Of a stretch of DNA of 10,259 nucleotides, positions 1 through 10,259 are shown in pieces. The notes under the pieces were generated by a model. It was not told where the DNA came from. It did no database searches and saw only the letters and a program-made list of their open reading frames with translations. The position numbers and the translations under genes were made by a program. The DNA is taken from the IMG/VR virus record IMGVR_UViG_2698536552_000004. One strand, written 5' to 3'. Source of the stretch: a virus (Duplodnaviria; Heunggongvirae; Uroviricota; Caudoviricetes). The first letter of the stretch is position 1. Each line of letters begins with the position of its first letter.

Positions 1-414
1 GGCGGCTTCAACAGTGAAACAGTACAGGACGTCATGCTGGGAGCGGTGGAACGCCGCTTCGGCAACGAGCTTCCGGCGTCTCCAGTAGAGTGGCTGACGG
101 ATAATGGTTCATGCTACCGGGCTAATGAAACACGGCAGTTTGCCCGGATGTTGGGGCTTGAACCGAAGAGCACGGCGGTGCGGAGTCCGGAGAGTAACGG
201 CATAGCAGAGAGCTTCGTGAAAACGATAAAGCGTGACTACATCAGTGTCATGCCCAAACCAGACGGGTTAACGGCAGCAAAGAACCTTGCAGAGGCGTTC
301 GAGCATTATAACGAATGGCATCCGCATAGTGCACTGGGTTATCGCTCGCCACGGGAATATCTACGGCAGCAAGCCAGTAATGGGTTAAGTGATAACAGGT
401 GTCTGGAAATATAG
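1..414 (+). CDS. insD: IS2 transposase OrfB (rve/DDE integrase core), C-terminal fragment; 5' end outside window
   Basis: Frame 1 is open from position 1 to TAG at 412-414. The translation ...[36 protein letters not shown] matches the C-terminus of IS3-family OrfB, specifically IS2 InsD as I recall it. Confidence 0.85.
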
Positions 415-425
415 GGGCAAATCCA
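1..425 (+). mobile_element. IS2 (IS3 family) insertion sequence, 3' portion including right terminal inverted repeat; left part lies outside the window
   Basis: The window opens inside a transposase ORF that stops at 412-414. The element then ends ...GGTGTCTGGAAATATAGGGGCAAATCCA at 425, which I recognise from memory as the IS2 right end. Sequence character changes to phage replication genes immediately after. Confidence 0.8.
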
Positions 426-533
426 GCGTTCATCAGCCCCCGCATTGCCGACAGGATCACAGACGGGGGGCGCAACTGGTTGTCGTTCAACTGGCCCAGC
501 TACCGTTCTTGTATCAGAGGTGTGGCTGCATGA
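426..533 (+). pseudogene. 3' remnant of the replication-module gene upstream of the helicase (likely initiator or helicase loader), interrupted by IS2
   Basis: The frame is open from the IS2 end to TGA at 531-533 (...NWLSFNWPSYRSCIRGVAA*) with no start codon. Its stop overlaps the helicase ATG as ATGA, the usual coupling between a lambdoid initiator/loader gene and its helicase. The identity of the disrupted gene is inferred, not seen. Confidence 0.35.
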
Positions 534-1921
534 CAACACCAGTCTGGCGTAATGATGACCTGGAAGGCGCTGTCATTGGCGCATTCTTTCTGCGTGGGGC
601 AGATCATGAAGTGATGGATATTCTGATCACACTACCGGCGGACATTTTTTCTGTACGAGCGTATCGGGATATCTACACAGGCATCTGCAGACAGGCCCGT
701 GTTTCAGGAGTGATTGACCCCGTGCTGTTGTGTAATGAGATGCCGGAACTTGCCCCGGTGATTACTGATACCGGGCGTAAAACCTGGGTGAAGTCTTCAC
801 TGGAGCACTATGTTGCAGCGTTGCGGCGCAATGCCGCACTGCGCGATGCAGAAAAAACACTGAATGAGGCGCTGCAGAAATTACGTGATGCGCATACCTG
901 TGAAGCAGCTGAAGATGCCCTGAAGGATGCGCAGAACATGATGGTCACACTGTCGACAGGAAAGGGCGTCATTCAGCCGGTACATATTGATGATGTGCTT
1001 CCGGAAGTGGTTGAGCGTGTTGAATGCCGGAATCAGGGGCTGGAGAAATCCAGGACGTTGATGACCGGTATTGATGAACTGGACGCAAAAACAGGCGGTA
1101 TGGAGCCCGGAGACCTGGTATTCATTGCCGCCCGTCCTTCGATGGGGAAAACCGAACTTGCGCTGGACATCATCGACAAGGTGACTGAGCAGGGGCATGG
1201 TGTGCTTCTGTTCACCATGGAGATGGCGAACATCCAGATTGGTGAACGTATGGTGTCTGCGGCTGGAGGGATGCCAGTATCACGCCTGAAATCTGTGGCT
1301 CACTTTGAAGATGAAGACTGGGCGCGTTTCTCACAAGGGGTGGGGCGGATGACCGGGCGCAATATCTGGATGGTGGACCAGGCGAACCTGACCATTGATG
1401 AGATATGCGCAACAACGAAACACCATCTGATTAAACATCCGGAAACGGCGCTGGTGGTGGTTGATTATCTCGGGCTGATAAAAACCCGAACCACGGGGCG
1501 TCATGACCTTGCCGTGGGTGAAATCTCAAAGGGGCTTAAAGGCCTGGCAAAATCCGGTGGTTTTCCGTTGATTGCGCTGAGCCAGCTCTCCCGCGGTGTG
1601 GAGTCCAGACCCAATAAACGTCCCATGAACTCAGACCTGAAAAATTCCGGAGAAATAGAGGCGGATGCAGACATCATTCTGATGCTTTACAGGGATGAAG
1701 TGTACAACCCGGATACACAGGCTACAGGCATAGCAGAAATTAATATCACGAAACAACGTAACGGTTCTCTGGGGACGATTTACCGGCGTTTTTATAACGG
1801 ACATTTTCTGCCTGTGGACCAGGAAAGCGCACAGGTTCTTTCCACCCCAATGCGGCAGCCCCAGCCGCGCAGATACAGCAATACACGTACCGACAGCAGT
1901 AAGATGGAGCGTTTCTTTTGA
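530..1921 (+). CDS. DnaB-like replicative DNA helicase (phage P22 gp12-type)
   Basis: ATG at 530 is preceded by GAGGTG at 516-521. The N-terminus has a DnaB N-domain-like motif (LEGAVIGAFFL). The C-terminal RecA-like domain carries Walker A (AARPSMGKTELAL), Walker B (ALVVVDYLGL) and the SQLSR motif (IALSQLSRGVESRPNKRP), followed by DADIILMLYRDEVYN. The ORF-track start at 389 lies inside IS2 and is rejected. Confidence 0.9.
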   Translation: MTTPVWRNDDLEGAVIGAFFLRGADHEVMDILITLPADIFSVRAYRDIYTGICRQARVSGVIDPVLLCNEMPELAPVITDTGRKTWVKSSLEHYVAALRRNAALRDAEKTLNEALQKLRDAHTCEAAEDALKDAQNMMVTLSTGKGVIQPVHIDDVLPEVVERVECRNQGLEKSRTLMTGIDELDAKTGGMEPGDLVFIAARPSMGKTELALDIIDKVTEQGHGVLLFTMEMANIQIGERMVSAAGGMPVSRLKSVAHFEDEDWARFSQGVGRMTGRNIWMVDQANLTIDEICATTKHHLIKHPETALVVVDYLGLIKTRTTGRHDLAVGEISKGLKGLAKSGGFPLIALSQLSRGVESRPNKRPMNSDLKNSGEIEADADIILMLYRDEVYNPDTQATGIAEINITKQRNGSLGTIYRRFYNGHFLPVDQESAQVLSTPMRQPQPRRYSNTRTDSSKMERFF

Positions 1922-2175: not shown

Positions 2176-2546
2176 TGCGCCATGAGTTTATTTTACCTTA
2201 TCCGCCGACGGTGAATACTTACTGGCGACGTCGTGGCAGCACATATTTTGTATCAAAAGTTGGTGAGCGTTATCGCCGTGATGTGACGCTAATTGTTCGC
2301 CAGCAGCGGCTGAAATTAAACCTGTCCGGAAGGCTGGCGATAAAGATTATTGCAGAGCCACCGGATAAGCGCCGTCGTGACCTGGACAATATCCTGAAAG
2401 CACCACTGGATGCGCTGACGCATGCCGGACTACTCATAGACGACGAGCAGTTTGATGAAATCAATATTGTGCGCGGTCAGCTCGTTCCTGGTGGGCGACT
2501 GGGCGTGAAGATTTATGAAATCACAGGTGATAACGATGGCGCGTGA
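2175..2546 (+). CDS. rusA: RusA-family Holliday junction resolvase
   Basis: [16 protein letters not shown]...YR...[30 protein letters not shown]... aligns along its whole length with E. coli RusA as I recall it, including the catalytic acidic cluster (RRRDLDN, DDEQ). RBS GAGGTG sits at 2161-2166. Confidence 0.9.
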
Positions 2547-2926: not shown

Positions 2927-2956
2927 TTGACCAGACACATTGTCCGGGGCTATATT
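2927..2956 (+). promoter_or_regulatory. candidate late promoter pR' (sigma70 -35 TTGACC / -10 TATATT) immediately downstream of Q
   Basis: TTGACC at 2927-2932, an 18-nt spacer, then TATATT at 2951-2956. Position directly after the Q stop matches lambdoid pR' architecture. The Q-binding and pause elements cannot be defined without experiment. Confidence 0.5.
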
Positions 2957-3017
2957 CCTCACGCGCCAGCAAAATCTGGCGTCGGGATTGGAACCCCGGA
3001 TAGAGACCGCGACAGAC

Positions 3018-3040
3018 ACACGCCGCGAGCGTGTTTTTTA
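3018..3040 (+). terminator. intrinsic terminator (candidate tR') ending a short 6S-like leader transcript
   Basis: A 6-bp GC-rich stem (ACACGC / GCGTGT) with a 5-nt loop, followed by TTTTTTATT, lies about 55-80 nt downstream of the predicted pR' start site. Confidence 0.55.
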
Positions 3041-3167
3041 TTGTCGTATGCACGCGCACATCTGAATTATGGTGGGGCGCATGGGGGAGCTGAAAAGCTC
3101 GCCGGTCGGTTTCCCGGTAGTTCCAACCCTGTGCGTCTCACCACCCGATGATTGGAACCTGACGGTG

Positions 3168-3196
3168 TTGACAGTTTCAGGTTTGCAGTTTACATT
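3168..3196 (+). promoter_or_regulatory. candidate sigma70 promoter upstream of the ORF6N-like gene
   Basis: Consensus -35 TTGACA at 3168-3173, a 17-nt spacer, then TACATT at 3191-3196. It lies downstream of tR', so it could drive Q-independent expression. Sequence match only. Confidence 0.3.
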
Positions 3197-3402
3197 TCCC
3201 CGCGGTGCTCAAAACACCTCGAAAGCGGTATCCACACCCGATAGCCATGTGGTTTTTTTGTGTCCAGAATTCTTGGTTTATGACCGGGTGTGCGGCTAAT
3301 ACAATACCAGCAATGGAAATACGCCCGCCGACTTTCGACGGTTTTGAGCGCCCGGTCACCCTCTCAAAAGGGGTAAATCAAAATATTCGAAAGGACATGT
3401 CT

Positions 3403-3926: not shown

Positions 3927-4159
3927 NNNNNNNNNNNNNNNNNNNNNNNNNNNNNNNNNNNNNNNNNNNNNNNNNNNNNNNNNNNNNNNNNNNNNNNNNN
4001 NNNNNNNNNNNNNNNNNNNNNNNNNNNNNNNNNNNNNNNNNNNNNNNNNNNNNNNNNNNNNNNNNNNNNNNNNNNNNNNNNNNNNNNNNNNNNNNNNNNN
4101 NNNNNNNNNNNNNNNNNNNNNNNNNNNNNNNNNNNNNNNNNNNNNNNNNNNNNNNNNNN

Positions 4160-4235
4160 NNNNNNNNNNNNNNNNNGTCAGAGCGAGCGACTCATAATCG
4201 CCAGGTCGCTGGTTCAAGTCCAGCAAGGGCCACCA
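4160..4235 (+). tRNA. tRNA with CAU anticodon, ileX-like (tRNA-Ile2 or Met); 5' ~17 nt inside the N-mask, start estimated
   Basis: The visible 59 nt (4177-4235) contain anticodon loop CUCAUAA, T-arm GCTGG-TTCAAGT-CCAGC and the acceptor 3' strand plus CCA. They align to the 3' 59 nt of E. coli ileX as I recall it. The start is extrapolated assuming 76 nt. Confidence 0.7.
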
Positions 4236-4236
4236 A

Positions 4237-4313
4237 CCACCACTAGCTCATCCGGATAGAGCATCAACCTTCTAAGTTGACGGTGCGAGGTTCGAGTCCT
4301 CGGTGGTGGGCCA
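4237..4313 (+). tRNA. tRNA-Arg (anticodon UCU)
   Basis: Manual cloverleaf: acceptor CCACCAC/GTGGTGG, D-stem GCTC/GAGC, anticodon stem TCAAC/GTTGA with loop CTTCTAA, T-arm CGAGG-TTCGAGT-CCTCG, discriminator G and encoded CCA. It resembles the argU-type tRNAs carried by lambdoid and Stx phages. Confidence 0.8.
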
Positions 4314-4315
4314 GC

Positions 4316-4391
<76 letters not shown>

Positions 4392-4394
4392 TAT

Positions 4395-4469
<75 letters not shown>

Positions 4470-4893
4470 GCGAGATTTGAGACGAAGGTTGTTATTTGCA
4501 CTGACACAATATTGTGTGGGAATGTCTGACTCCTTACCATCTCCTGTTCTGTGATGTTGTTTTGTTGCAGTTCCAGTGCTCTTTTTTCAGCACCAGNNNN
4601 NNNNNNNNNNNNNNNNNNNNNNNNNNNNNNNNNNNNNNNNNNNNNNNNNNNNNNNNNNNNNNNNNNNNNNNNNNNNNNNNNNNNNNNNNNNNNNNNNNNN
4701 NNNNNNNNNNNNNNNNNNNNNNNNNNNNNNNNNNNNNNNNNNNNNNNNNNNNNNNNNNNNNNNNNNNNNNNNNNNNNNNNNNNNNNNNNNNNNNNNNNNN
4801 NNNNNNNNNNNNNNNNNNNNNNNNNNNNNNNNNNNNNNNNNNNNNNATGGCCTTTTTTCTTTCCGATAGCACAGGTCTGTCGGGGGGCGGGAT

Positions 4894-5109
4894 ATGTATC
4901 AGATGGAAAAAATATCAACAGGCATTGCCTACGGCACCTCCGCCGGCAGTGCCGGCTACTGGTTTTTGCAGTGGTTGGATCAGGTCAGTCCATCACAGTG
5001 GGCTGCGATTGGTGTGCTGGGAAGTCTGCTTCTGGGGCTTCTGACTTATCTGACAAATCTGTATTTCAAAATAAGAGAAGACAAGCGTAAGGCTGCGAGA
5101 GGTGAATAA
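4894..5109 (+). CDS. class II holin/antiholin (phage 21 S21-type pinholin, DLP12 EssD-like) with dual start
   Basis: The 71-aa product [71 protein letters not shown] has two transmembrane segments and a charged C-terminus. Met1 and Met4 form the dual-start motif. Its stop overlaps the endolysin ATG as TAATG. Confidence 0.9.
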
Positions 5110-5606
5110 TGTCGCCATCATTACGCAAGGCTGTTGCAGCTGCTATTGGTGGTGGGGCTGTTGCTATAGCATCTGTGTTAATCACTGGCCCAGGTGGTAA
5201 CGATGGTCTGGAAGGTGTCAGCTACATACCATACAAAGATATCATTGGTGTATGGACTGTATGTCACGGACACACCGGAAAAGACATCATGCTCGGTAAA
5301 ACGTATACCGAAGCAGAATGCAAAGCCCTCCTGAATAAAGACCTTGCCACTGTCGCCAGACAAATTAACCCGTACATCAAAGTCGATATACCGGAAACAA
5401 CGCGCGGCGCTCTTTACTCGTTCGTTTACAACGTGGGCGCTGGCAATTTCAGAACATCGACGCTTCTTCGCAAAATAAACCAGGGCGATATCAAAGGCGC
5501 ATGTGACCAGCTACGTCGCTGGACATATGCTGGCGGTAAGCAATGGAAAGGGCTGATGACCCGTCGTGAGATTGAGCGTGAAGTCTGTTTGTGGGGGCAG
5601 CAATGA
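5109..5606 (+). CDS. SAR endolysin (T4-lysozyme-like muramidase, phage 21 R21 / DLP12 RrrD-like)
   Basis: The N-terminus has a Gly/Ala-rich signal-anchor-release segment ([20 protein letters not shown]). A catalytic Glu-Asp-Thr arrangement follows (LEGVSY...[14 protein letters not shown]). Position directly after the holin. Confidence 0.9.
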
Positions 5607-6067
5607 GCAGAGTCACCGCGATTATCTCCGCTCTGGTTATCTGCATCATCGTCTGCCTGTCATGGGCTGTTAATCATTACCGTGATAACGCCATTACCTA
5701 CAAAGAGCAGCGCGACAAAAACGCAAGAGAACTGAAGCTGGCGAACGCAACCATTACTGACATGCAGCAGAGACAGCGTGATGTTAATGCACTCGATGCT
5801 AAATACACGAAGGAGTTAGCTGATGCGAAAGCTGAAAATGAAACTCTGCGCGCTGATGTTGCCGCTGGTCGTCGTCGGTTGCACATCAAAGCAGTCTGTC
5901 AGTCAGTGCGTGAAGCCACCACCGCCTCCGGCGTGGATAATGCAACCAGCCCCCGACTGGCAGACACCGCTGAACGGGATTATTTCACCCTCAGAGAGCG
6001 GCTGATGACGATGCAGATGCAACTGGAAGGGGCACAGGAGTATATCCGCACTCAGTGCATTAAGTAG
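5603..6067 (+). CDS. Rz i-spanin (inner-membrane spanin subunit)
   Basis: ATG 5603 overlaps the endolysin stop as ATGA. The product has an N-terminal transmembrane segment and a coiled-coil periplasmic domain ([23 protein letters not shown]...). The track GTG start at 5591 is less likely. Confidence 0.85.
5823..6005 (+). CDS. Rz1 o-spanin (outer-membrane lipoprotein) embedded in the +1 frame of Rz
   Basis: [60 protein letters not shown] has a signal peptide with a lipobox (VVGC) and a proline-rich mature domain. RBS AGGAG at 5811-5815. It lies wholly inside Rz, the classic lambda-type arrangement. Confidence 0.85.
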
Positions 6068-6109: not shown

Positions 6110-6416
6110 ATGCCATCACTAATCCCACGTGCCTGCCGTAAGCGTGGATGTGCAGGTACAACCACAGACAGTTCGGGTTACTGCGATAAACATCGCGGTG
6201 AAGGCTGGGTGCAGCACCAGCGCGGACTGAGCCGCCACCAGCGTGGCTATGGCTCAAAATGGACGGTGATTCGTGCCCGTATTCTGAAGCGCGATAAAGG
6301 TCTGTGTCAGTTGTGTCTGCGTGTCGGTGTGGTGAGCGAGGCGAAAACCGTCGACCACATCATCCCGAAAGCGCATGGCGGAACAGACGCAGACAGCAAC
6401 CTGCAGAGTCTGTGCT
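6110..6416 (+). CDS. HNH endonuclease (terminase-associated, HK97 gp74-like); 3' end hidden by N-mask
   Basis: RBS GAGGT precedes ATG 6110. Cys-rich N-terminus (CRKRGCAG...YCDKHR) and HNH core (DHIIPKAHGGTDADSNLQSLC). It sits immediately upstream of the terminase genes. The true stop lies inside 6417-6680. Confidence 0.8.
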
Positions 6417-6680
6417 NNNNNNNNNNNNNNNNNNNNNNNNNNNNNNNNNNNNNNNNNNNNNNNNNNNNNNNNNNNNNNNNNNNNNNNNNNNNNNNNNNNN
6501 NNNNNNNNNNNNNNNNNNNNNNNNNNNNNNNNNNNNNNNNNNNNNNNNNNNNNNNNNNNNNNNNNNNNNNNNNNNNNNNNNNNNNNNNNNNNNNNNNNNN
6601 NNNNNNNNNNNNNNNNNNNNNNNNNNNNNNNNNNNNNNNNNNNNNNNNNNNNNNNNNNNNNNNNNNNNNNNNNNNNNNNN

Positions 6681-7099
6681 AGCGAGCCCTGAACAAAGAT
6701 GAACCTGTTTTTACGCCCATCAAAGGTGTTGAGCCACCAGAGTGGTTCGCTGAAGAAGATCTCCCTCTCGCCACGATCATGTGGCAACTGACAACCAAAG
6801 AACTCTGCGGTCAGGGCCTGCTGTGCGTGACTGACCTGGCGGTACTTGAGCGGTGGTGCGTGGCCTATGAGTTCTGGCGACGTGCCGTGAAAAATATTGC
6901 CATACAGGGCAACACCATCACCGGTGCAATGGGCGGCAGGGTCAAAAATCCGGAGCTGACCGCCAAAAAAGAACAGGAGTCCGAGATGAGCAGCACGGGG
7001 GCAATGCTCGGACTCGACCCCAGCAGCCGCCAGCGTCTGATTGGCCTGGCGGGGCAGAAGAAAGCCACTAACCCGTTTCTGAAAATTATCGAATCATGA
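6681..7099 (+). CDS. terminase small subunit (P27 family); 5' end hidden by N-mask
   Basis: The visible product begins ...[29 protein letters not shown]...WRRAVKNI..., resembling the N-terminal region of P27-family TerS. Its stop TGA at 7097-7099 overlaps the TerL ATG. The real start is probably about 15-20 codons inside the mask. Confidence 0.75.
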
Positions 7100-8829
7100 G
7101 CCGGAAATCTTACCCCAACGTAAATGCTGCAAATCAGTATGCCCGGGATGTCGTGCGCGGAAAGATTGTTGCCTGCCAGTTTGTGATTCAGGCCTGCCAG
7201 CGCCATCTTGATGACCTGATGGCGGAAAAAAGTAAGTCGTTTCGTTACCGCTTCGACAAGGACCTGGCTGAACGGGCCGCGAAATTTATTCAGCTGTTGC
7301 CGCACACCAAGGGGGAGTGGGCATTCAAACGGATGCCCATCACGCTGGAGCCGTGGCAGCTATTTGTGATCTGCTGTGCGTTTGGCTGGGTCAATAAAGG
7401 CACCCGGTTGCGCCGCTTCCGGGAGGTGTACACCGAAATCCCCCGTAAGAACGGCAAATCAGCAATCTCTGCCGGTGTTGCCCTGTATTGTTTTGCCTGT
7501 GATAACGAGTTTGGCGCGGAAGTGTATTCCGGTGCCACGACAGAGAAACAGGCGTGGGAAGTCTTTCGCCCGGCGCGACTGATGTGTAAACGCACACCCA
7601 TGCTGACGGAAGCGTTCGGGATTGAGGTTAACGCCTCAAACATGAACCGTCCGGAGGATGGCGCGCGGTTTGAACCGCTGATCGGCAACCCAGGTGATGG
7701 TTCATCACCCCACTGTGCCGTGGTTGATGAATATCACGAGCATGCCACCGATGCGCTTTATACCACAATGCTTACCGGGATGGGGGCGCGACGTCAGCCA
7801 CTGATGTGGGCCATCACCACCGCCGGGTACAACATTGAGGGGCCGTGCTACGACAAGCGGCGGGAAGTCATCGAGATGCTCAACGGCTCGGTGCCTAACG
7901 ATGAACTGTTCGGGATCATCTATACCGTTGATGAAGGTGACGACTGGACCGGCCCGCAGGTGCTGGAAAAAGCCAATCCAAATATTGGCGTGTCGGTTTA
8001 TCGCGAATTTTTGTTAAGTCAGCAGCAGCGTGCGAAAAATAACGCCCGTCTGGCAAACGTCTTTAAAACAAAACACCTCAATATCTGGGTGTCGGCGCGT
8101 TCGGCGTATTTCAACTTGGTGAGCTGGCAGAGCTGCGAGGATAAATCACTGACCCTTGAGCAGTTCGAGGGGCAGCCGTGCATTCTGGCCTTTGACCTGG
8201 CGCGTAAGCTGGATATGAACAGCATGGCGCGACTTTATACCCGCGAGATTGACGGTAAAACGCATTACTACAGTGTGGCCCCGCGTTTCTGGGTACCGTA
8301 TGACACGGTGTACAGCGTCGAGAAAAATGAAGATCGACGGACAGCCGAACGCTTTCAGAAATGGGTGGAAATGGGCGTTCTGACCGTTACCGATGGTGCG
8401 GAGGTGGATTATCGCTACATCCTCGAGGAGGCCAAAGCGGCGAACAAAATCAGCCCGGTCAGTGAGTCACCCATCGACCCCTTCGGGGCGACCGGGTTGT
8501 CACATGACCTTGCTGATGAAGACCTGAATCCCGTCACTATCGTCCAGAACTTCACCAATATGTCCGATCCGATGAAAGAGCTGGAAGCAGCGATTGAATC
8601 GGGACGTTTTCATCATGACGGCAATCCCATCATGACCTGGTGTATCGGCAACGTGGTCGGCAAAAACATGCCGGGTAACGATGATGTGGTGAAACCCGTC
8701 AAAGAGCAGGCGGAAAACAAAATCGATGGTGCAGTTGCGCTGATTATGGCGGTTGGCAGAGCCATGCTGTACGAGAAAGAAGACACGCTGTCTGACCACA
8801 TTGAGTCCTACGGGATCCGCTCGCTTTAA
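7096..8829 (+). CDS. terminase large subunit (HK97-like TerL, ATPase + nuclease)
   Basis: A 577-aa ORF translationally coupled to TerS. Size, position and the overall ATPase-then-nuclease layout are typical of TerL. No antisense ORF of comparable quality. Confidence 0.9.
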
Positions 8830-8840
8830 CTGAGGTAATT

Positions 8841-9023
8841 ATGATCATGCTGATTCTCGCGCCTCTGGTGGGCGTGCTGGGTGCGCTTTTGCTGGCGTAT
8901 GGTGCCTGGCTGATTTATCCCCCGGCGGGTTTTGTTGTTGCCGGGGCGCTGTGCCTGTTCTGGTCGTGGCTGGTGGCGCGATATCTCGACCGTACACGGC
9001 AGTCTGTCGGCGGAGGTAAATAG
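8841..9023 (+). CDS. small hypothetical membrane protein (two predicted TM helices) between terminase and portal
   Basis: [65 protein letters not shown] at 8832-8836 precedes ATG 8841 (a second ATG lies at 8847). Its stop TAG 9021-9023 abuts the portal GTG. The coding call rests on ORF context only. Confidence 0.45.
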
Positions 9024-10179
9024 TGTTCTTTTCGGGATTATTTCAACGAAAAAGCGATGTGCCGGTGACCACGCCAGCAGAACTGCTGATGCTATCGGGC
9101 TGTCATACGACACCTATACCGGAAAGCGGATCAGTAGCCAGCGGGCCATGCGCCTGACGGCGGTCTATTCTTGCGTCAGGGTGCTGGCAGAGTCTGTTGG
9201 TATGCTGCCCTGCAGTCTCTACAAAATCAGCGGTACCCTGAAAACACGGGCGGTGGATGAACGACTGCATAAGTTGGTTTCGGCAAAACCTAATGGCTAC
9301 ATGACACCGCAGGAATTCTGGGAGCTGGTTATTGTCTGCCTGTGTCTACGGGGGAATTTTTACGCCTACAAGGTAAAGGCACTGGGAGAAGTGGTGGAGC
9401 TTCTTCCGATAGATCCGGGCTGTGTGGAACCGAAGCTGAACAGCCAGTGGCAGCCGGTTTATCAGGTGACGTTTCCGGATGGTTCCGTGGATGTGTTGAC
9501 CCAGAATGAAATCTGGCATGTGCGCACCCTGACGCTGGATGGACTTGTCGGGCTGAATCCCATTGCGTATGCGCGTGAGGCCATTTCACTGGCAGCGGCA
9601 ACCGAGGAGCACGGTGCCAGGTTGTTTAGTAATGGTGCGGTGACATCCGGTGTGTTGCGTACGGAACAAAAGCTCACGCCGGATGCTTACGAGCGTCTGA
9701 AGAAAGATTTTGAGGAGTGTCACACGGGGCTTGGCAATGCTCACCGCCCGATGATTCTGGAAATGGGGCTGGACTGGAAGTCGATGGCGCTGAACGCCGA
9801 GGACAGTCAGTTCCTGGAAACCCGCAAGTTTCAGCTGGAAGAAATCTGTCGTCTGTTCCGGGTGCCGTTGCACATGGTGCAGAACACCGATCGCGCCACC
9901 TTCAACAATATCGAAGAGCTGGGGCTGGGATTTATCAACTATTCACTGGTGCCGTATCTGACCCGCATCGAACAGCGGATCAACACCGGACTGGTACGAA
10001 AAAGTAAGCAGGGCGTTTATTACGCCAAATTTAACGCCGGGGCGTTACTGCGCGGGGATATGAAGTCCCGTTTTGAAGCCTACGCCACCGGGATCAACTG
10101 GGGAATTTACTCTTCCAATGACTGCCGCGACCTGGAAGATATGAATCCGCGTCCCGGTGGTGTAATGCCGATCAGTTAA
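9023..10179 (+). CDS. portal protein (HK97 family); N-terminal ~20-45 codons in a different frame from the body, so apparent frameshift or possible pseudogene
   Basis: GGAGG at 9012-9016 and GTG at 9023 open a frame-2 ORF (MFFSGLFQRKSDVPVTTPAEL...) that stops at about 9160. The long portal body runs in frame 1 to TAA at 10177-10179 (...AVYSCVRVLAESVGMLP...ARLFSNGAVTSGVL...). Frame 1 has no RBS-associated start before ATG 9148. The track start at TTG 8932 translates a Cys/Trp/Arg-rich stretch overlapping the upstream gene and is rejected. Confidence 0.6.
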
Positions 10180-10211
10180 GGATCAGTTGACCGATCCAGT
10201 GGCTGTGTAAG

Positions 10212-10246
10212 AATCCGGAAACGCTCACTTGTTTCCGGATTTTTTT
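10212..10246 (+). terminator. strong rho-independent terminator downstream of the portal gene
   Basis: A perfect 10-bp stem (ATCCGGAAAC / GTTTCCGGAT) with an 8-nt loop, followed by TTTTTT. Confidence 0.6.
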
Positions 10247-10259
10247 ATGCACATTGGAC

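Follow-up and report, generated by a model that had tools for sequence, protein, structure and literature searches.

The window, which is the whole stretch of viral DNA analyzed here (10,259 nt), is part of a lambdoid-type enterobacterial prophage. At its left side, the C-terminal portion of a transposase of the IS3 family (IS2-like, rve_3 domain; 34..414) abuts a DnaB-like replicative helicase gene (389..1921), a contact suggestive of IS insertion on the left of the replication region of the prophage. The helicase gene is followed by RusA and Q antiterminator genes. Just downstream of the Q gene, and overlapping the start of an ORF6N-domain antirepressor-like ORF (from 3205), Rfam matches above the gathering score were obtained for c4-a1b1 (2950..3002), isrK (2963..3039), C4 antisense RNA (3065..3148) and sRNA-Xcc1 (3282..3365); the region 2950..3365 looks like a P1/P7-type C4 antisense/antirepressor control module. 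Three tRNA genes, Arg(tct), Thr(tgt) and Gly(tcc), are located upstream of the lysis cassette (4237..4469) with 250-nt runs of N on either side (3927..4176 and 4597..4846), and a further run of N (6417..6680) joins an HNH endonuclease and a P27-family small terminase into an apparent ORF of 329 aa (6110..7099). The lysis cassette itself is complete and of the P21 type (4894..6067), and the N-terminus of its lysozyme appears, as judged by eye, hydrophobic and SAR-like.

The gene under study lies between the genes for the large terminase subunit (TerL) and the portal protein (Table 1). It is an ATG-started ORF of 60 codons followed by TAG, as seen in the ORF list of the window and its translation. 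The gap between the TerL stop (8827..8829) and the ymfR start comprises 11 nt and holds the ribosome-binding site that the original prediction had pointed out, a GAGG placed 2 nt past the TerL stop and 5 nt ahead of the ymfR ATG; its position is conserved in diverged relatives (L088-L094). At the other end, the gene abuts the portal start as predicted, with an overlap of 1 nt.

Table 1. Features of the TerL-portal junction and of the lysis cassette in the window
Feature	Coordinates	Strand	Basis or remark
S21-family holin, 71 aa	4894..5109		
Phage lysozyme	5109..5606		
Rz	5591..6067		
Terminase large subunit gene, 577 aa, upstream neighbour	7096..8829	+	Pfam TerL_ATPase and TerL_nuclease; PHROG 9, E 3e-195
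Shine-Dalgarno GAGG of ymfR	8832..8835	+	Read from sequence
ymfR coding sequence	8841..9023	+	PHROG 502 match, PGAP name in homologous loci, dN/dS
Predicted transmembrane helix 1 (~residues 3-25), invariant G11, G14, G21	8847..8915	+	Hydropathy, AF2, alignment columns
Turn W23-x-I-Y-P-P-A-G-F31, most conserved motif, uncharged, predicted periplasmic	8907..8933	+	Alignments A1 and A2, distant relatives
Predicted transmembrane helix 2 (~residues 29-48), invariant G30, G35, C38, W41	8925..8984	+	Alignment columns, AF2, hydropathy
GGAGG Shine-Dalgarno of portal, within the last ymfR codons	9012..9016	+	Sequence; same layout in relatives
Stop/start overlap TAGTG	9021..9025	+	ymfR TAG (9021..9023) and portal GTG (9023..9025) share G
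Portal gene, pseudogene	9023..10162	+	Pfam Phage_portal E 3e-107; alignment to intact L001 portal
End of IS4 element	10163..10259	.	100% identity to insG-bearing IS4 copies in many E. coli genomes

As a correction to the original prediction, the portal gene downstream is broken in the window. A 1-nt deletion between 9085 and 9086 (GAACTG^CTGATG, compared with GA[AG]CTGGC in relatives) shifts the portal frame after 21 codons, and the frame initiated at the GTG, a start inferred from intact relatives, ends at 9157. The long "portal ORF" that overlaps ymfR (8932..10179) is an artefact of this frameshift. Homology to intact portals stops at 10162, where the 3' end of the gene has been lost to IS4. 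The IMG/VR contigs L003-L006 are 100% identical to the window through both the deletion and the IS4 junction, while the missing base is retained in 66 other related loci; a deletion common to four contigs and absent from 66 implies an inherited lesion and not a sequencing error. The prophage is thus defective here and ymfR is intact, as it is in the cryptic prophage e14, although the intactness of a gene of only 183 nt is no evidence of host-level selection.

Coding evidence and spread of the YmfR family

The original prediction had left room for a spurious ORF, i.e., a chance open frame in the TerL-portal spacer. The gene is short, and since the window contains 81 ORFs of at least 40 aa, a length of 60 codons alone is within chance. 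However, an ORF of 59-60 codons is present in 94 of 97 sequences (the window and 96 loci), and comparison of diverged enterobacterial copies over the first 48 codons gave dN/dS values of 0.07-0.35 at dS 0.5-1.8, well below 1, which indicates from sequence comparison that the reading frame is under purifying selection. Frame, length and motif are kept across Escherichia, Yersinia, Klebsiella, Mangrovibacter, an Alcaligenaceae genome bin and many uncultured viral contigs. Loss of the ORF or of its frame from the same junction in relatives had been named as the observation that would speak against a real gene; both ORF and frame were found to be kept in the related junctions examined. The spurious-ORF reading is therefore refuted by conservation and its probability is negligible. 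One copy, in L092 (Shigella flexneri CP182557.1, 4001..4179), gave a ymfR match of 179 nt instead of 180 with no intact ORF recovered, and is probably a frameshifted pseudogene. An RNA element as explanation for the conserved region was dropped, because the predicted folding of the ymfR region was no better than that of shuffled sequences (z 0.36) and an Rfam scan of the region matched zero families.

The product matched PHROG 502, annotated as "membrane protein", with an E-value of 2.8e-28 covering residues 1-55 of 60. Searches of Pfam (E up to 1), NCBIfam and PADLOC returned nothing significant for YmfR or the distant relatives scanned, the PADLOC scan of YmfR and two distant relatives yielding no families. 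By megablast, the TerL-ymfR-portal junction was detected in 1600 of 5426 complete E. coli genomes, in which PGAP annotates "ymfR: protein YmfR" flanked by "terminase large subunit" and "phage portal protein". The YmfR of the window is 97% identical to P0001 and 88% identical to the large E. coli cluster P0009. The proposed tblastn check of conservation and synteny recovered homologues in phages phiP27, ST64B (sb3), SfI, SfII, SfIV and PY54 and in Klebsiella phages. In E. coli K-12 the gene corresponds to ymfR (b1150, "IPR020297 domain-containing protein YmfR") of e14, where it is intact between the terminase pseudogene aaaE and the portal fragment beeE. The genes of e14, phiP27, ST64B, SfI, SfII, SfIV and PY54 are the same gene, coding for a two-TM hairpin of ~60 aa in the TerL-portal slot, with 88-100% identity for close copies from E. 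coli and phages. The window nevertheless represents a different decaying prophage from e14, with a frameshifted portal gene and inserted IS4 and IS2, whereas the flanks of the e14 gene are pseudogene fragments.

More distant relatives were collected with a profile search of 1.8 billion representative proteins (E up to 0.001), which yielded 426 clusters at 50% identity, nearly all of 50-70 aa, with the common core G-A-W-L-[IV]-Y-x-P-A-G-[FY]-I-x-x-G. The window protein shares the features that define this family, namely a full-length profile match, a two-helix-plus-turn architecture of ~60 aa and location in the TerL-portal slot on the same strand. In the RefSeq record of Yersinia phage PY54 (L139), a TerL-portal gap of 190 nt was left unannotated; this gap (2295..2492) encodes a YmfR homologue of 65 aa (PHROG 502, E 1.7e-17) that overlaps both the TerL stop and the portal ATG. 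Depositors have labelled YmfR homologues as "putative integral membrane protein", "membrane protein", "hypothetical protein" or "head-tail joining protein W". A sequence search of the PDB with the family profile found no solved structure containing a relative. The literature found on ymfR consists of e14 deletions, one transcriptome table and use as a neutral integration site, with no functional study found, and our search for terminase, portal and small membrane protein together found nothing relevant. The original prediction had described the function of the ORF as not recognisable from sequence, and this holds; its identity, however, is known, as the gene is real and already catalogued as YmfR (PHROG 502), and the present copy is an ordinary one. 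We regard its identity, together with the anatomy described below, as nearly certain.

A predicted hairpin in the inner membrane

The small two-TM membrane ORF between TerL and portal was borne out by sequence, hydropathy and structure prediction. The protein contains two hydrophobic stretches with Kyte-Doolittle means (15 residues) of up to 2.7 and 2.2, and AlphaFold2 (AF2) predicted helices at residues 2-25 and 27-57, broken at P27-P28, with a mean pLDDT of 71; about 80% of YmfR is hydrophobic helix. In 199 relatives, the mean number of K+R was 0.53 in the N-terminus, 0.06 in the five-residue turn and 1.66 in the C-terminal tail. According to the positive-inside rule, this distribution places both ends in the cytoplasm and the turn in the periplasm, so that the topology check suggested earlier gives an inner-membrane helical hairpin that is predicted to be N-in/C-in. 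A Foldseek comparison of the AF2 model with viral structures returned generic hairpins only, with E-values above 1.

The invariant positions are the helix residues named in Table 1, S42 and the turn, which reads W-x-[IV]-Y-x-P-A-G-[FY] family-wide. They are thus located on helix-packing faces and at the membrane interface and not in the cytoplasmic tail. The tail is variable apart from the final G-G-[EDK], which is conserved because its codons constitute the portal GGAGG Shine-Dalgarno sequence. Some relatives (P0157, P0185, P0200, and P0222) are tandem double hairpins of 100-120 aa with two YmfR-type hairpins each, as would be expected of a protein that works as a dimer or larger assembly. 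The invariant glycines and the tandem relatives together suggest that YmfR oligomerises. From the best 150 profile hits, the 13 longest sequences were read individually; they showed only tandem hairpins and frameshift artefacts, and in none was the hairpin fused to portal or TerL.

The label "head-tail joining protein W", carried by the GenBank records H29, H35, H41 and H42, would make YmfR a head-tail joining protein of the lambda gpW type. In lambda, the W gene is located between the large terminase and portal genes, and YmfR resembles gpW in size class and position. However, Pfam yielded no match to a head-tail joining family with an E-value up to 1, and YmfR is strongly hydrophobic and predicted to be all-helical, in contrast to the soluble alpha/beta protein gpW. 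The gpW-type reading is contradicted by this composition and is highly improbable; the label is wrong for YmfR homologues.

Linkage to the portal gene and expression

The close contact between ymfR and the portal gene is not restricted to the window. In all 28 diverse loci with a located portal start, the stop and start codons overlap, by 1 nt in 26 of them (TGATG, TAATG or TAGTG) and by 4 nt in the remaining 2. Portals encoded behind a YmfR-type ORF start with the conserved hydrophobic motif M-x-[FL]-F (MFFSGLF, MFFPGMF, MFLPNLF, MSLFGS; L001, L088-L140, and others), and gp3 of HK97, which has no such ORF, starts with MEEPKYT.

We examined 47 diverse loci from one-genome-per-species contigs and IMG/VR, one of which (L096) was excluded as a false positive inside a long ORF. 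The small ORF was found between TerL and portal homologues in 44 of the 46 true positives, and in the other 2 one neighbour was too diverged for detection; the ORF was seen at no other position. The gene order TerL-small ORF-portal persists in loci whose identity to the window has fallen to 21-25% in TerL and 28-35% in portal. In a partial Mantel analysis of 19 loci, similarity of the small protein was correlated with that of portal when TerL was held constant (r 0.50, p 0.0002) and not with that of TerL when portal was held constant (r 0.00, p 0.47). As the small protein tracks portal and not TerL, the mosaic breakpoints separate TerL from ymfR, which moves together with portal. Taken together, the sequence data indicate that ymfR is translationally coupled to the portal gene and inherited with it, although the co-inheritance could merely reflect the overlap, which leaves no neutral crossover site. 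YmfR-type genes accompany both contractile Mu-like tails and siphovirus tails. Capsid-only elements (cf-PICIs) were considered as a test case, but in the proteobacterial ones terL ends the operon and there is no comparable junction.

The same arrangement might be explained by a leader ORF, in which translation of a short upstream cistron determines, via termination-reinitiation, the rate at which portal is made, while the peptide as such is of little importance. The universal stop/start overlap and the portal Shine-Dalgarno sequence in the last ymfR codons are in favor of such a device. As a sole role it is nonetheless improbable, since the dN/dS values reveal clear purifying selection on the amino acids, invariant residues and a motif are maintained across the 426 clusters, and a leader peptide has no need of a conserved two-TM hairpin.

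With regard to transcription, a consensus scan of 8300..9500, which constitutes weak evidence, detected neither a promoter-like site within ~500 nt upstream of ymfR nor a plus-strand terminator between ymfR and portal. The GC content of ymfR (0.57-0.59) is similar to that of TerL and portal (0.51-0.59). A moron in the sense of Juhala and Hendrix was rejected on the basis of this architecture, which lacks an own promoter, an own terminator and a GC shift. Judged from its sequence context, ymfR is most probably a late-operon gene that is transcribed with the packaging and head genes. In e14, the ymfR mRNA was increased (log2 4.5) alongside other e14 genes under an SOS-inducing drug (PMC10012262).

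It is possible, though somewhat unlikely, that YmfR is a late-expressed membrane effector unrelated to head assembly, which blocks DNA entry of superinfecting phages in the lytic cycle or modulates membrane potential or lysis timing and occupies its place in the head operon only for reasons of timing and dosage. Conservation is concentrated within the membrane and the periplasmic turn, as would be expected of an intramembrane interaction, PHROG assigns family 502 to the category "moron, auxiliary metabolic gene and host takeover", and many HK97-type phages live without YmfR. The shape is also holin-like: class II holins such as P21 S (PF04971) share small size, two TM helices and a charged C-terminus with YmfR. 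However, no holin model of Pfam matched YmfR, and the window encodes its own S21-type holin, lysozyme and Rz in a cassette away from ymfR; a holin is thus unlikely, and modulation of lysis, one of the roles first suggested, fits poorly. Superinfection exclusion, the other suggestion, agrees poorly with a gene that has the architecture described above, is induced together with the rest of e14 and matches no PADLOC model of known anti-phage defence or exclusion proteins; moreover, deletion or replacement of ymfR in K-12 caused no host phenotype (PMC9145139). Nor would an effector role account for the overlap of 1-4 nt between the gene and the portal start, present in 28 of 28 loci, or for unrelated two-TM ORFs at the same slot in phages of Gram-positive hosts, among them virulent dairy phages. 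Exclusion and lysis roles are therefore possible but less well supported than a portal-linked role.

Positional analogues and a possible role in head assembly

The statement of the original prediction that TerL normally runs directly into portal is in agreement with HK97, in which no ORF lies between the two genes. Records with a homologous portal numbered 2066, and in 10 of 12 phages picked at even intervals along their ranking the slot contained no small TM ORF. One of the 12 carries a MazF toxin gene there, and the only two-TM ORF among them belongs to Vibrio phage K315 and gave a weak match to the YmfR profile (22.7 bits). In Burkholderia phage vB_SBP9, the two small ORFs ahead of portal are soluble and not TM proteins. 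The HK97 head pathway thus needs no such ORF in general. That the ORF is not a standard head component, as had been stated, is hence correct for HK97-type phages at large but not for the YmfR lineage, in which it is a fixed component.

Small hydrophobic proteins occur in the same slot of other HK97-type modules. Streptococcus phage Sfi21 encodes orf59c, a protein of 59 aa with two hydrophobic helices that belongs to DUF1056 (PF06341, PHROG 1142). Phage records with this gene number 237 and include those of DT1 and 7201, two virulent dairy phages. In contrast to ymfR, orf59c is associated with Gram-positive hosts and is separated from portal by a gap of 17 nt instead of an overlap. YmfR did not match the DUF1056 Pfam HMM at E up to 1 (gathering score 22.2 bits), while orf59c as positive control reached 39.5 bits, and hhalign of the YmfR family against DUF1056 gave a probability of 0.2%, with the DUF1056 alignment being shallow (24 sequences, 83-100% identical). 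The only YmfR relative touching PHROG 1142 is the distant P0252 (E 0.006). Membership of YmfR in DUF1056 is accordingly not detectable, and only slot and two-TM architecture agree. In the literature, DUF1056 was found only in a list. Pseudomonas phage D3 likewise encodes in this slot a protein of 54 aa with two hydrophobic helices (orf3, PHROG 4810), whose gene shares 4 nt with the end of TerL and 8 nt with the beginning of portal. It differs from YmfR (hhalign 1.2%) and has its own conserved motif, the C-terminal FIRKGLTSE. Profile-profile comparison of the three families gave probabilities of 0.2-2.6% and no homology, so they are either analogues in position and architecture or relatives too diverged to be recognised as such.

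The DUF1056 analogues (H73-H105) are labelled "head-tail connector protein" or "capsid and scaffold protein". The inconsistent labels of YmfR homologues and DUF1056 analogues appear to derive from gene position only. They would fit a hydrophobic virion or ejection protein that is packaged near portal and aids passage of DNA across the inner membrane at infection, a role to which the position beside the portal gene in the structural operon would also conform. Apart from the labels being guesses, YmfR was not listed in the virion proteomes consulted, and a hydrophobic hairpin obeying the positive-inside rule is expected in the membrane of the producer cell. Tape-measure proteins serve in DNA passage in tailed phages, and both the contractile Mu-like and the siphovirus tails that accompany YmfR already carry them. 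We consider a virion protein very unlikely.

The presence of unrelated two-TM ORFs (54-59 aa) in the same slot of Sfi21- and D3-type phages argues for a job that is tied to the head and packaging module and not to lysogeny. We tentatively propose, as a reading that may well prove wrong, that YmfR serves early head assembly as a membrane accessory linked to portal. The hairpins would form small oligomers in the inner membrane via their glycine-rich helix faces, and the same ribosomes would read ymfR just before the portal gene. YmfR might then act together with portal at the start of head assembly, for instance by holding or nucleating the new portal ring at the inner membrane, as an accessory that was kept by this lineage and dispensed with by other HK97-type phages. 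The position of the gene for gp40 in T4 differs from the ymfR slot. In T4, prohead assembly starts from the membrane-attached gp20 portal and needs the phage protein gp40 (PMC9958956), which offers a functional analogy only, i.e., a membrane-associated phage helper of the portal ring. The main weakness of an assembly role is that conservation is best within the membrane and in the periplasmic turn and not in the cytoplasmic tail, which would be accessible to portal; the tail varies in sequence, and its partial constraint comes only from the portal ribosome-binding site embedded in its codons.

A broader reading, which we consider doubtful, would unite YmfR, DUF1056 and D3 orf3 in one functional class of portal-coupled two-helix membrane microproteins that oligomerise and tether or nucleate the portal ring. 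Such a microprotein would be made in step with portal through termination-reinitiation. If this applied, head assembly would be membrane-started and T4-like in a sizeable branch of HK97-type phages infecting both Gram-negative and Gram-positive hosts.

A hairpin of 60 aa has stayed directly attached to the portal start codon through a divergence that left TerL and portal with 21-35% identity. The tight coupling to portal and the analogous hairpins elsewhere make ymfR a cheap and well-defined target for a knockout. Should the gene be needed for incorporation of portal or for packaging, the labels "head-tail joining protein W", "capsid and scaffold protein" and "moron" would have to be corrected, and a membrane step would be added to the assembly pathway of HK97-type phages.
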